Shown: positions 5,862 through 64,000 of the stretch, in pieces
Position numbering within the stretch: the first letter of the stretch is position 1
Layout: each line of letters opens with the position of its first letter
Assembly (NCBI GenBank): GCA_963666285.1
Contig: OY762711.1
Source of the DNA: Sedimentisphaerales bacterium
Lineage (GTDB): Bacteria; Planctomycetota; Phycisphaerae; Sedimentisphaerales; SM23-30
Direction: 5' to 3' (one strand)
Length of the DNA stretch: 64,000 nt
Made by a program: the position numbers and the translations under genes
The notes under the pieces: generated by a model
Told to the model about the DNA's origin: nothing
Database searches by the model: none
The model's input: the letters and a program-made list of their open reading frames with translations, nothing else

Positions 5862-6383
5862 TTAGATATTTTGGATACTGAATTTAACACACTTTAACAG
5901 CCTGGCATGAATACGTGACATTCTTTTATAAGTATTTTGTATTGAAAGCCCGAACCTGTTAGACAAATCTTTTGGTTTAACTTTTTCATAGTACCTAAGC
6001 TTAATAAACTGAACATCGCGATCACTTAATTTACTTATACAATTTCTAACGGCATCGATTTTTTGCTTATAATTATCATTGAATTTTTCAGCATTAGGCG
6101 TTATCAGCTCAATAATATCATCATCAAAAACAACCCGCTCATTCAACCGGCGTTTCATTTTGATATGATTCAGAACCTGATTACGTGCAACGGCTATCCC
6201 CCAGGCTAAAAAGTCTGTACCAGACTCAAATTCATCAAACTTTTGCCACAATACCCTGGTGGTCTCCTGGAGAACATCGTCAGCATCATGATAATTGCAG
6301 AGCTGGCCAAGAATATAACTATATAACCTGGACTGATTCTTAAGAATTAAGTTCAAAAATTCGCTTGTCAGATTTTCATTCAT
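5862..6383 (-). CDS. ECF sigma-70 factor (planctomycete-type)
   Basis: DADDVLQET region 2, F.AW..VARN, C-terminal HTH region 4; 173 aa. Confidence 0.9.
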   Translation of the reverse strand: MNENLTSEFLNLILKNQSRLYSYILGQLCNYHDADDVLQETTRVLWQKFDEFESGTDFLAWGIAVARNQVLNHIKMKRRLNERVVFDDDIIELITPNAEKFNDNYKQKIDAVRNCISKLSDRDVQFIKLRYYEKVKPKDLSNRFGLSIQNTYKRMSRIHARLLKCVKFSIQNI

Positions 6384-60374: not shown

Positions 60375-61322
60375 ATGGCAATAAAAAACGCTACAACTAA
60401 AGCCCCTCGCAATCGAACCCTGTTCCTGGAAGATTCAGATATTGGCCGTCTAAAAAAGCGAATTGTTACTATTGACAGTAAGCCCAAACTTAAGGACATT
60501 CTCAATAAGACAATATGCGGCGATAGTATTGAGCTGCTCGATACGCTGCCGGCAGCATCAGTTGATTTGCTGATAGCCGACCCACCGTATAACCTGACCA
60601 AACAGTTCAAATCAAACACATTCAAATCCGGCCAGATGGATGAATACCGACAATGGCTGGAGCTGTGGATACCAAAAATGGTGCGGCTGTGTAAACCTAA
60701 TGCCAGTATATATATCTGCGGTGACTGGCGGTCATCTCCGGCGATTTATTACGAGCTGGAAAAACATTTCAAAATCCGTAACAGGCTGACCTGGGAACGT
60801 GAAAAAGGCCGCGGCTCAAAGAGCAACTGGAAAAACTCACATGAAGATATCTGGTTTGCCACGATGGGTGATGAATATACATTCAATGTAGACGCGGTAA
60901 AACTTAAACGCCGCGTTATCGCGCCGTATAAGGAAAACGGCAAGCCCAAAGACTGGCATGAAAGCGATGACGGCAAATACAGGCTGACCCATCCATCTAA
61001 TATGCTGACAGATTTGAGCGTACCGTTCTGGTCTATGCCGGAAAATACCGAGCATCCGACCCAGAAACCGGAAAAACTGCTGGCCAAGCTAATCCTGGCA
61101 AGTTCAAGCCAGGGCGATGTCATATTCGATCCATTCCTCGGATCCGGCACAACCTGTGTAACCGCTAAAAAACTCAACCGTAACTATATCGGTATCGAAA
61201 AAGATGAAACTTTCTGTATGCTGGCCGAGAAACGGCTGGAGCTGGCAGAAACCGATAAAACTATTCAAGGCTATCATGACGGGGTATTCTGGGAACGTAA
61301 CACATCACCTTCAAACAGCTAG
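60375..61322 (+). CDS. Site-specific DNA methyltransferase (N4-C/N6-A, beta class), orphan
   Basis: DPPY precedes HPTQKP and DPFLGSGTT; no nuclease gene adjacent. Confidence 0.92.
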   Translation: MAIKNATTKAPRNRTLFLEDSDIGRLKKRIVTIDSKPKLKDILNKTICGDSIELLDTLPAASVDLLIADPPYNLTKQFKSNTFKSGQMDEYRQWLELWIPKMVRLCKPNASIYICGDWRSSPAIYYELEKHFKIRNRLTWEREKGRGSKSNWKNSHEDIWFATMGDEYTFNVDAVKLKRRVIAPYKENGKPKDWHESDDGKYRLTHPSNMLTDLSVPFWSMPENTEHPTQKPEKLLAKLILASSSQGDVIFDPFLGSGTTCVTAKKLNRNYIGIEKDETFCMLAEKRLELAETDKTIQGYHDGVFWERNTSPSNS

Positions 61323-61460
61323 CAGAAATCAATACCACATCACTAATTTTTTTATAAGACTTTCCAAAAATAATTTTGCCTATCTATTTTTTATATATTA
61401 GGCTTAATTCAGACATCATATGACTATTCGAGTTTGACGAGGTTAAATACTATTTAGCAT

Positions 61461-61818
61461 ACCGGACCGAAACAGGGAAAGTGTAAACCGCCCGGCCACA
61501 CCAGACACGGATGTTGCGGACAAGGATTTCGCGGTTGCCGCAAGAGAGAGATAATATCGGTTGCTTCCCGGGTCCAGAATCCATCGTGTGCATTTGCGAA
61601 GACCTCGATAATTATAGGGGTTTCGGCCCCATATGCCGGGTTCACCCGCTCGTTCCGCTGGTTTGGCGGGGCTAGTGACGGTAGCGCTTCTGTGTAGGCG
61701 CCCGGCATTTATATCTGACGGATCGTGCGTCAGAGAATGATATTTGTCTGCTGTTCTGACAGCCGACACCAATAAAAAGGGCTTACCGTGTTCGACTGGA
61801 ACCGGGAGCCCTGTTTTT
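61461..61818 (+). ncRNA. Unassigned large structured RNA candidate with terminal intrinsic terminator
   Basis: GC-rich island with at least 9 helices, a UUCG tetraloop and crossing pairings; no credible ORF. Confidence 0.6.
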
Positions 61819-61885
61819 TATTAATAATTAGGTGTCGCTTGCTGTAATTCTTCACGTTCGACAGAACTTCAACAAACCAAAAAGA

Positions 61886-63757
61886 TTACTTCCTTTCTTC
61901 TATTAGTTTACCGGCAACCAGGTTGACTTTGTATTCTTTCCTGCCGGGTTGGTAATCGATTTCTGCTGACACATCTTCATATTTGTTTCTATCGTATTCG
62001 GCATCTATTCCGTAAAACCAGCTTTCAGACAACTGAACTTCTACTGCAGCATTGGCATTTGCCGGTGCTTCAATTTCAAACCGGCCCTCTGCGTCTGTAT
62101 GAGAAATATTTCGATATCTTTTACCGTCAACAACCAGGTTTACAAATCTGCCACCTAGCTTTTTACCGGTTTGTGTTTCCAAAACTCCACTAATCTTAAT
62201 TTCTTTCTTGTACAGCTTAACCTGTATATCTTTTGAACTAAAGGGAACATCTTCTTTCATAGAAATTAGATCTTTTAGGTATCCATTTTTATTTGAAAAT
62301 ACTCTTATCTCCATTTTATTTCTGAACTGAGGAATGTATAAAATGTCAAACCTGCCATTAAGATCAGTTTTGACATTGCAATACCGTTTATATGTTTCAT
62401 AATCAATCTGTTTATTCAGATGCCAGCCTTGATAATAATATTTAGTATTTCCATTTTTAATACCATTTCCTTCTCCATCCAGCGGTTTAACAAACACATC
62501 AACCTCTACATCCGGTACCGGTTTTCCGTCAGTATCCACTATTGTCCCTGTTATTCTGCCAGCCTGCTCCATTACCATTACAATATCTCTTGCATCAATG
62601 AGGGAAAAAGCACCTTTGACATTGCCAACCTTACCCGGCGACTTAATATCTTCACTGGTTGAAAGTACAACCCAGCCGACTTCATTATTGCCTTCTTTAT
62701 AAGCCCTCAGCAAAACAGGTAAAGCTGCTTGTTTACCCATATCGGCTACTGTAATTGGCGGCAAGGTATAAAAGAACCTACCATATTGATCGGTGATGTA
62801 TTTCTTCGGCCCTCGTAAAGCTGCCGGACCGCTACCCTCCAGAACCTCAACTATTGCTCCCTCTACAGGATTGCCGTCAGAATCGATTACCTTTCCAGAT
62901 ACACTGCCGCCTTCCTCTCTTTCCATTTCTTTGTAATCCTCTAAATAGTCAGGATAGAATATTTCTTCTGGTATCAGATCATAGTTTGCATCAATATTTA
63001 CACTGACATCCAGTCCGTTACCATTTATTATTTTCACATTAATATTCAATGGCCGCATAGTTTTCGGGTCAACAACAGCCTGCCCGCTGCCAGTTGATGT
63101 TTTACGCGTATTCTCTGTATACTCAAAGGAATAACTTAAATCAAAGATCATCTTTTCTTTGGTACTATCTTCTTTGTTATGAACTGCGGTCAGGCCTTCA
63201 ACTTCTTTGATATCACCATTATTATTAAACAAGCCAAAAAACCTGATGAAACTTTTATCTGCAACAGGTTCAAAAGTATTTTTTGAAGGCGAATAGCGAT
63301 ACGTCTTTTTTTCGTGATTTATCAGAAGAAAATCGATACCGTTATCTATTTCAGTCGAATCATCCTCATCATGACGATAATGATCGGGCAGACGGAACCA
63401 CATCTTTTCAGTTTCCGGGTCTTCGCCATCCATAACCCGGGTTACCACAATAGACACACTCTCAGATGCATAAAGATTTTTTACAATATTCGCCCAGGCA
63501 GTTGTCGCACCATCAGGCGAAACGCCGCTTTTGTTCAAACCGACAAACAAAGCCAATAAAATAATTGCCGCTATTGCCGGCGGTAATAATCTAACAGGTT
63601 TTTCCATGATCATATTCCATATTCTATTGCCGGACTTCTGTCTCGATTGGCTTTTATGCAAAGCGATAGCCTCGGTTAAAACCTCGTCGCGCAGTTCCGG
63701 GCGTGGTTCAATATTAAGTTCAGATATAAGTATTTTCATCTCTTTTGGCGATCTCAT
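61886..63757 (-). CDS. Putative anti-sigma factor with LolA-like and carboxypeptidase-regulatory-like domains
   Basis: ATGA overlap with the upstream ECF sigma; TM; G.V.D.DG.PV.GA.V and TD..GRF repeats. Confidence 0.7.
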   Translation of the reverse strand: MRSPKEMKILISELNIEPRPELRDEVLTEAIALHKSQSRQKSGNRIWNMIMEKPVRLLPPAIAAIILLALFVGLNKSGVSPDGATTAWANIVKNLYASESVSIVVTRVMDGEDPETEKMWFRLPDHYRHDEDDSTEIDNGIDFLLINHEKKTYRYSPSKNTFEPVADKSFIRFFGLFNNNGDIKEVEGLTAVHNKEDSTKEKMIFDLSYSFEYTENTRKTSTGSGQAVVDPKTMRPLNINVKIINGNGLDVSVNIDANYDLIPEEIFYPDYLEDYKEMEREEGGSVSGKVIDSDGNPVEGAIVEVLEGSGPAALRGPKKYITDQYGRFFYTLPPITVADMGKQAALPVLLRAYKEGNNEVGWVVLSTSEDIKSPGKVGNVKGAFSLIDARDIVMVMEQAGRITGTIVDTDGKPVPDVEVDVFVKPLDGEGNGIKNGNTKYYYQGWHLNKQIDYETYKRYCNVKTDLNGRFDILYIPQFRNKMEIRVFSNKNGYLKDLISMKEDVPFSSKDIQVKLYKKEIKISGVLETQTGKKLGGRFVNLVVDGKRYRNISHTDAEGRFEIEAPANANAAVEVQLSESWFYGIDAEYDRNKYEDVSAEIDYQPGRKEYKVNLVAGKLIEERK

Positions 63758-64000
63758 AGTATCACCTCGCAATCTACTAACGATCTGAGTTTATCTATGC
63801 CGTAACGATAACGGCTCCGAACTGTATTGACCGAAGTGTTACGGAATTGGGCGATCTGGGTAAATTTCATCCCGCCGTGAATATGCAGGATAATAATTTC
63901 CCGCTGCTCGTACGGCAACTGTGCTAATGCCGCATTGATAATAGCATTTTTCTCGTTTTGGATCGCTGACGCCGCCGGATTAACAGAATCGGCTTCAAAC
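63754..64000 (-). CDS. ECF sigma factor (3' part; 5' end outside the window)
   Basis: ALAQLPYEQREIIILHIHGGMKFTQIA..SVNTVRSRYRYGIDKLRS; stop TGA at 63754-63756. Confidence 0.88.
   Translation of the reverse strand, partial: FEADSVNPAASAIQNEKNAIINAALAQLPYEQREIIILHIHGGMKFTQIAQFRNTSVNTVRSRYRYGIDKLRSLVDCEVIL

Follow-up and report, generated by a model that had tools for sequence, protein, structure and literature searches.

The window analysed here is a 64,000-nucleotide (nt) stretch of contig OY762711.1 (GenBank assembly GCA_963666285.1) from Sedimentisphaerales bacterium. Within it, a structured non-coding RNA (ncRNA) is encoded by an independent gene, present in a single copy, which lies on the plus strand and spans about 61405-61437 to about 61820, a length of about 385-415 nt. 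The gene is flanked 5' by an N6_N4 DNA methylase gene (60375-61322, plus strand; Pfam E 5.8e-46) and 3' by a convergent gene (61886-63772, minus strand) for a protein of 628 amino acids with carboxypeptidase-regulatory-like domains. The G+C content of the block at 61400-61800 is 0.44-0.59, against 0.25-0.26 just upstream and 0.37 downstream. A first-pass annotation, made by a model from the sequence alone, had placed a GC-rich block in AT-rich flanks between a methyltransferase gene and a convergent gene, and the windowed composition and gene coordinates bear out both descriptions. The genome of the window, G000 (6.35 Mb in 4 contigs, 97% complete), returns one full BLAST match to the RNA gene; the seven other matches are 15-30 nt long with E of at least 2.

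The features of the RNA gene are listed below. Pairing percentages give the share of cells that form standard pairs in a MAFFT alignment of the four genomes of the genus (G000, G001, G002 and G003, about three independent lineages).

61375-61401, plus strand: promoter-like box, consisting of TTTGCC (61375-61380), an 11-nt spacer region and TTTATATATTAG (61390-61401)
61402-61436, plus strand: putative 5' leader, whose length and sequence vary among genomes
61437-61608, plus strand: 5' domain, closed by helix P0
61438-61444 with 61601-61607, plus strand: helix P0, 100% paired in the four genus genomes
61457-61462 with 61586-61591, plus strand: helix P1, GCAUAC/GUGUGC, 100% paired in all four genus genomes
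61464-61468 with 61571-61575, plus strand: helix P2, GGACC/GGUCC, 90% paired in the genus
61475-61479 with 61565-61569, plus strand: helix P3, GGGAA/UUCCC, 90% paired, one pair changed on both sides in the genus
61486-61491 with 61531-61536, plus strand: inner helix A, AACCGC/GCGGUU, read directly from the sequences
61617-61630, plus strand: hairpin H1, GGGGU-UUCG-GCCCC, 75% paired as MAFFT aligned it
61633-61708, plus strand: three-way junction, the central domain
61633-61640 with 61701-61708, plus strand: closing helix of the junction, AUGCCGGG/CCCGGCAU, 78% paired, three of eight pairs changed on both sides
61644-61682, plus strand: long hairpin of the junction, six of 13 pairs changed on both sides
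61686-61699, plus strand: short hairpin of the junction, 100% paired, one of four pairs changed on both sides
61715-61733, plus strand: hairpin H4, CUGACG, loop, CGUCAG, 92% paired, one pair changed on both sides
61746-61769, plus strand: hairpin H5, 91% paired, with AGCCGACAC conserved on the 3' strand
61779-61811, plus strand: terminal hairpin, 13 pairs with 2 bulges and an apical GUUC-GACUG-GAAC, 96% paired in the genus
61814-61819, plus strand: U-run, directly after the terminal hairpin

The 5' boundary of the RNA lies at or before 61437, further upstream than the start at 61461 first assigned to it: ACGAGGUU (61437-61444) pairs with GACCUCG (61601-61607), and this pairing encloses the 5' domain. 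Transcription would start just 3' of the promoter-like box. The box, in the form TTTGCC, N10-12, TTTATATTTTAG, sits 25-35 nt 5' of the closing helix in 10 of the 15 rows examined, the window included (the others are G010, G022, G012, M43, M41, M45, G011, G014 and G018). In G001-G003 a variant is placed at about 85 nt upstream, so that 13 of these rows have the box in all; it was not seen in G008 or G013. At the 3' end, the GGGCT..AGCCC stem with a T-run that had been called a terminator is confirmed, as the sequence has the build of an intrinsic (Rho-independent) terminator: the 13-pair stem at 61779-61811, then UGUUUUUU. A simple promoter and terminator scanner, which accepts unbulged stems only, reports no terminator in 61100-62100.

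Two observations concern these ends in other genes. Several members of the RNA family (L049/L048/L051; L059 at about 1520-1545) carry UGCGC and an A-run after the U-run, able to pair back with it; the pairing makes a second, U/A-rich hairpin in those members, which the window copy lacks. Elsewhere in G000, the gene for the signal recognition particle (SRP) RNA is preceded by a similar box, TTTGCA, N14, TATAGAATATTAG (upstream region C1 about 6110-6219, L036), and the gene for transfer-messenger RNA (tmRNA) has a classical TTGACT, N17, TATAAT promoter instead. This contrast may bear on the promoter types of the organism.

Folding of the plus strand yields -138.9 kcal/mol, compared with -124.8 +/- 5.6 for shuffled sequences (z -2.49; none of 100 shuffles as good); for the minus strand z is -1.74, and 7 of 100 shuffles do as well. 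Within the genus, 88.4% of the cells of an 86-pair model are paired; sliding the 3' partners by 1-3 columns lowers this to 34-48%. Seventeen pairs of this model are changed on both sides, compared with 7.6 +/- 1.9 in shuffles, and none of the 500 shuffles reaches 17. Many of the one-sided changes in the genus run through G-U and are sensible only on the plus strand. The RNA is assigned to that strand, as it had been at first sight, because the G-U pairs, the U-run and the promoter box all agree.

From 5' to 3', the predicted fold comprises a 5' domain that ACGAGGUU/ACCUCG closes, then one small hairpin, a three-way junction, two hairpins and the long terminal hairpin. Three pairs of P1 vary on one side only, via G-U, which is consistent with the plus strand; P1 is not recognisable in family members beyond the genus. 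Helix A is misaligned by MAFFT and is therefore counted at only 50% paired; read directly, it takes the form AACCGC/GCGGUU in G000 and G003, AGCCG/CGGCU in G002 and AGUCGC/GCGACU in G001. A hairpin stands at the place of H1 in every genome, but its length and sequence differ. The 3' strand of H5 keeps GCCGA in most family members.

Of the helices that the first-pass annotation had read by eye, GGACC/GGUCC, GGGAA/UUCCC, the UUCG hairpin, AUGCCGGG/CCCGGCAU and the two 3' hairpins stand, and three mutually crossing ones do not. These three (ACACGGAUG/CAUCGUGU, UUGCGG/CCGCAA and AUAAUAUCGG/CGAUAAUUAU) are 70.2% paired, a level that 230 of 500 shuffles also attain. One of their pairs is changed on both sides against 1.0 expected, and sub-helices are paired at only 37.5% and 50%. 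Two of them compete with the better-supported P1 and P0, and within them only the ACAC/GUGU half stays pairable, via G-U, where it rivals P1 for the same 3' strand. Because the crossing helices are not conserved and do no better than shuffled partners, there is no evidence for the pseudoknots or switch that had been drawn from them.

RNAalifold on the MAFFT 5'-domain alignments gives poor inner helices, with helix A misaligned. On alignment A10 it joins GAGG of P2 to CCUC of P0, a pairing in which only one pair is changed on both sides. That candidate was dropped, and P0 and P2 were kept because they explain more covariation.

By eye, a second inner pairing can be traced in the genus. The bases just 3' of both strands of helix A (61493-61496 with 61537-61540) are complementary in lineage-specific form: CGGC/GCCG in G000, UUGGC/GCCAA in G003 and CUCUGG/CCAGAG in G001 and G002. 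If formed, this would be a tight, sterically awkward pseudoknot or an alternative pairing, and family members outside the genus have no counterpart of it.

The RNA extends beyond this genus. A BLAST search of 61 related genomes finds the whole element in one same-genus genome and the 3' end in the two other genomes of the genus, and alignment recovers the full RNA in all three other genus genomes, at 443, 472 and 470 nt against 383 nt in G000 (lengths are taken from ACGAGGUU to 8 nt past the terminal hairpin). R1, a covariance model of the genus 5' domain, matches all four genus genomes at E 1e-29 to 1e-38 and none of the 21 other genomes of the family, with only 8-bit matches on metagenome loci. 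An exact pattern of the genus 5' core matches no metagenome locus, and hence adds no genus-level sequences.

Two genomes of other genera, which share only the terminal hairpin by BLAST, lead to a wider family. Among the 401 genomes of the order, a terminal-hairpin pattern is found in 8, a single time in each and all from the window's family, and its reversed control in none; six metagenome contigs also contain the pattern. Among 14 loci, 11 carry ACGAGGTT 383-875 nt upstream of the hairpin end, and ACCTC follows 141-191 nt later in 11 of 11. The exceptions are G009, which lacks ACGAGGTT, M44, where the contig ends within the upstream part, and M42, where a variant of the motif opens the 5' domain. 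Distant members have compensatory versions of the closing helix, such as ACGAGGUC/GGCCUCGU, GAGGUC/GACCUC and AUGAGAU/AUCUCAU.

A second covariance model, R2, was made from a MAFFT alignment of ten non-genus 5' domains. Of the 21 family genomes outside the genus, 15 yield one R2 match each, and the genus genomes yield none. R1 and R2 together detect the RNA in 19 of the 25 genomes, and in 15 of the 18 genera, that make up a single Sedimentisphaerales family here, and as far as searched the RNA family is confined to it; R2, run with the stricter filters of Infernal, matches none of 141 genomes (at least 90% complete) from six sister families. The terminal hairpin is present in G009 (L054 / L060; 99% complete), but the 1.5 kb upstream of it contain no recognisable 5' domain, and this copy is either a degenerate or a very divergent RNA.

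Family members retain the 5' core and the 3' end and differ in the middle, which ranges from absent to several hundred bases long. The form in G000 is the shortest at 383 nt, and the others measure 403-875 nt. We take the genus form to be the reduced, shortest and most divergent member of an undescribed RNA family. This placement is argued from the identical closing helix and spacing, the P2/P3 arrangement, the terminal hairpin, the upstream box and the complementary distribution of R1 and R2. The P2/P3 arrangement around CAGGGA ... UCCCGG is common to the genus form and the rest, the terminal hairpin of one long form matches those of the genus by BLAST at E 3.9e-4 to 3.1e-7, and R1-type and R2-type matches fall in complementary sets of genomes. 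The window copy itself has ACGAGGUU/ACCUCG with the spacing of about 140-190 nt seen in the family, P2 and P3 inside, the GUUC/GAAC hairpin with its U-run, and one copy per genome.

Covariation in the wider family centres on the same 5' domain. In a plain MAFFT alignment of the 10 non-genus sequences (P0, P2, P3 and a hairpin P6), 86.7% of cells are paired against 24-56% when slid, and six pairs are changed on both sides compared with 1.9 in shuffles (none of 500 as high). When 19 sequences are aligned to R2, 85.6% of cells are paired against 22-54% when slid, and 13 of 22 pairs are changed on both sides against 6.3 in shuffles (again none of 500). Five of the eight P0 pairs are changed on both sides among 19 other family members, with AUGAGAU/AUCUCAU and GAGGUC/GACCUC as examples. 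The equivalent of P2 has three of five such pairs, and P3 has three of four with 92% of cells paired. Covariation among homologues, which the first-pass annotation had named as a check, is thus found at both depths, as 17 pairs in the genus and 13 of 22 in the family.

No known RNA accounts for the element. Searched against Rfam 15 (4227 models), the whole 64-kb window has no match at gathering score, in keeping with the initial report of no recognisable family. At E up to 10, the region 61200-62000 shows four weak minus-strand matches, three upstream of the RNA and one a CRISPR-repeat model at 13.6 bits (E 8.3), and an 875-nt family member gives three chance-level matches only. ARAGORN detects no transfer RNA or tmRNA in the window. 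The models for RNase P RNA, tmRNA, 6S RNA and SRP RNA have no match at the element, and each of these RNAs is located above its cut-off elsewhere in G000, which rejects all four identities: RNase P RNA (RF00010) at C1:2722187-2722563 (283.3 bits), tmRNA (RF00023) at C1:933820-934178 (156.7 bits), 6S RNA (RF00013) at C1:373774-373961 (56.9 bits) and SRP RNA (RF00169) at C1:6220-6318 (70.7 bits). Literature searches for Sedimentisphaerales noncoding RNA and Phycisphaerae structured RNA found no account of this RNA. The main text of a 2026 preprint on prokaryotic noncoding space (10.64898/2026.10.21.760802) contains no term beginning Planctomyc-, Phycisphaer- or Sedimentisphaer-, and its supplements could list such a cluster. 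Sequence and structure mark this as a new RNA family, without a relative in Rfam.

The RNA resembles two kinds of known RNA in general build. The orphan large RNAs OLE, GOLLD, ROOL, HEARO and the raiA motif are likewise hundreds of nucleotides long with many covarying helices. They too are free-standing and restricted to one lineage, and they combine a conserved core and a variable periphery with a function not evident from sequence. In contrast to them, the window RNA matches no Rfam model even at E up to 10 (their models being assumed present in the library), comes from a different lineage, and has its own signature of ACGAGGUU/ACCUCG and a terminal GUUC/GAAC apical stem, so the likeness is one of general character only. 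The housekeeping RNAs (RNase P RNA, tmRNA, 6S RNA and SRP RNA) are likewise single-copy with their own strong promoter-like box and terminator, present clade-wide whatever their neighbours, and variable in size via expansion segments; unlike them, the window RNA is limited to one bacterial family and is not universal.

Protein coding is rejected. No open frame is common to the 15 family members, each of which has several on either strand. In G000 a 124-codon antisense frame spans the element; it is divided between two frames in G003 and cut down to 71-codon pieces in G001, and G000 and G003 differ by a 1-nt indel within an otherwise conserved block. Conserved minus-strand coding, which the first-pass annotation had offered as grounds for abandoning the RNA, is thereby set aside. 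It is extremely improbable that a small protein is encoded on either strand with the structure incidental. The stop-to-stop frames of G000 (124 codons antisense, 79 sense) and a tblastn match between the antisense frame and G003, with 33% identity across 140 columns, speak for it, but such a match is what about 70% DNA identity gives alone, and the unshared frames, the indels not in multiples of three within conserved blocks and the dominance of compensatory pair changes speak against it.

Metatranscriptomes contain six short contigs (107-166 nt) from four libraries of four studies, about 86-96% identical to the window and all within 61456-61658, in the conserved 5' domain, a weak hint that relatives transcribe the RNA. 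The contigs carry no strand or transcript-end information. At 80% likeness, RNA-library contigs from relatives cover none of 61200-61455 or 61659-62050, which is uninformative on the transcript ends. A contig end joined to an adapter near 61452 is the end of one fragment only.

The genes around the RNA change from genome to genome. G000 has the methylase upstream and the convergent gene downstream. The methylase adjoins the RNA in no other genome, so a lasting link between the two, another point raised for checking, is not seen. In G001 obg lies upstream, and in both G001 and G002 trmO and mntP lie downstream. In G003 the RNA follows an unassigned gene for a protein of 860 amino acids and is followed by a convergent Abi_2 gene and then trmO. 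The four genus genomes share no neighbour on both sides, and the next gene is convergent in G000, G010, G011 and G020. Outside the genus, a divergent queA lies upstream in seven of 14 loci (L041, L045, L072, L073, L076, L081 and L082), and the remaining members adjoin unrelated or convergent genes, apart from those followed by a Kdo-transferase gene that are taken up below. The arrangement queA-RNA-Kdo transferase is probably the ancestral locus. The neighbours change while the promoter, core and terminator stay, and a cis-acting element would not come through such changes whole. The initial view of a free-standing large ncRNA, unlikely to be a cis riboswitch, is sustained by its own box and terminator, single copy, covariation and changing neighbours.

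The element is very probably a real structured ncRNA gene of a new family. In the explanation we favour, the gene would be transcribed from its own promoter-like box and end at its own hairpin and U-run terminator. The RNA would act in trans, binding one or more proteins as a ribonucleoprotein (RNP) scaffold. The P0-closed 5' domain would be its functional core, and the terminal hairpin would be both the terminator and a stabilising, protective or protein-binding end. The scaffold is suggested by the anatomy of the RNA, with its conserved core, variable expansions and conserved end. As a mode of action it is tentative, its probability lying somewhat short of one half; independent gene and trans-acting scaffold, taken as one statement, come out slightly on the probable side. 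It is unlikely, though not negligibly so, that the RNA is a new class of large functional RNA, a ribozyme or RNP core, with a job of its own in one anaerobic Planctomycetota family.

Several points weigh against this explanation. The 86-pair model was derived from the same four sequences on which it was counted, representing about three lineages; the 19-sequence alignment to R2 leans towards the model, and alignment A10 is fitted to the model's structure, which biases the counts in its favour. Inside the 5' domain, any fold beyond helix A is provisional. R2 picks the exact 5' domain of G000 (L050:1148-1319, equal to 61437-61608) at only 9.0 bits (E 0.37, not significant). Six of the 25 family genomes, including G015 (95% complete) and G009 (99%), have no detected 5' domain; these genomes either lack the RNA or have a form too divergent for R1 and R2. 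The RNA-library contigs, short, low in depth and derived from relatives, may stem from DNA carry-over. In six of the 14 non-genus loci (L041, L045, L068, L076, L080 and L081; members M41, M45, G018, G005, G019 and G021) the RNA is followed by a Kdo-transferase gene on its own strand. The scaffold itself would be a deduction from anatomy.

The Kdo-transferase gene is also the starting point for the idea that the RNA is, or descends from, a long cis leader that controls the downstream gene via its terminator, with waaA/kdtA as the ancestral target. A hairpin and U-run directly before a gene is the build of attenuators and riboswitches, whose leaders are structured in the same way, and in L041 the Kdo-transferase frame starts about 45 nt after the U-run. 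Against this, the Kdo-transferase gene adjoins the RNA in none of the four genus genomes, the next gene is convergent in the window and three other genomes, and the promoter, core and terminator persist wherever the RNA sits as its neighbours change. No anti-terminator pairing was seen, without a systematic search for one; the terminator, 96% paired, is the most conserved part, and 400-875 nt is extremely long for a leader. A leader function is therefore improbable as the general explanation; it is possible as an extra role in the linked genera, but not in the window. An improbable reading too, and pure speculation as regards a ribozyme, is a catalytic or ligand-binding RNA whose active or binding site is the P0-closed 5' domain. 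The closed conserved core has unpaired CAGGGA and CCUAAA/CCAGA beside P2 and P3, no protein-coding neighbour constantly accompanies the RNA, and its peripheral expansions vary in size, as those of large ribozymes do; yet it has no similarity to any Rfam ribozyme or riboswitch model, and a distribution in one family would be unusual for an essential catalyst.

Two further candidates fare worse than these. A very unlikely one makes the RNA a piece or landmark of a mobile or defence island, either as an attachment-site RNA or as a partner of the methylase or Abi gene. Defence-type neighbours in G000 (the N6_N4 methylase) and G003 (Abi_2) and a group II intron behind the terminator in one contig fit this idea, but the RNA is single-copy, found in 19 of 25 family genomes and mostly at a chromosomal housekeeping locus (queA, waaA, obg, trmO), while methylase and Abi occur in one genome each and no integrase or repeat flanks were seen. 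Titration of CsrA by a sponge of the CsrB/RsmZ type is highly improbable and was rejected. CsrA is encoded in the genome (89.5 bits), the 5' domain has one conserved A-y-GGAUG stretch, and a free-standing gene of about 350-400 nt with an intrinsic terminator resembles CsrB in size and layout. CsrB and RsmZ carry many GGA motifs, typically in hairpin loops, but here the motif is not enriched: the 15 family RNAs contain 174 GGA against 189.4 +/- 9.6 expected from dinucleotide shuffles, and G000 contains 8 against 8.2 +/- 2.2. The RNA consists of long helices that differ from one another, not of GGA-loop hairpins of one repeated kind.

Large, highly structured bacterial RNAs of undefined role are rare, and the known ones have each led to unexpected biology. 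If the RNA does form a new large functional class, its standing would be comparable to that of OLE, ROOL or GOLLD. It is a tractable RNA, with one copy per genome, clear boundaries and a conserved core, and the family provides a natural deletion series from 875 to 383 nt, whose minimal form is borne by at least one near-complete genome, in four contigs. Such a size series would map the minimal functional unit, with the window as the minimal natural version. To our knowledge, almost no RNA biology has been described for Sedimentisphaerales or for Planctomycetota generally, and with R1 and R2 a stretch that otherwise stands as blank intergenic DNA in this clade could be annotated. The family is narrow, which makes the general impact uncertain.

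The flanks of the RNA gene seem to be a variable spot. Defence-type genes stand beside it in two genus genomes only, as the methylase of G000 (60375-61322) and the Abi_2 gene of G003 (L026 3463-4371). On one metagenome contig (L046 134-563, minus strand), a group II intron starts right after the U-run of the RNA (Rfam D1-D4, 133 and 63.5 bits). In the sister contig L045, a near-identical RNA is followed by the Kdo-transferase gene instead of the intron. The intron in L046 looks like a terminator-targeting insertion, which we take to resemble the behaviour of class C group II introns.

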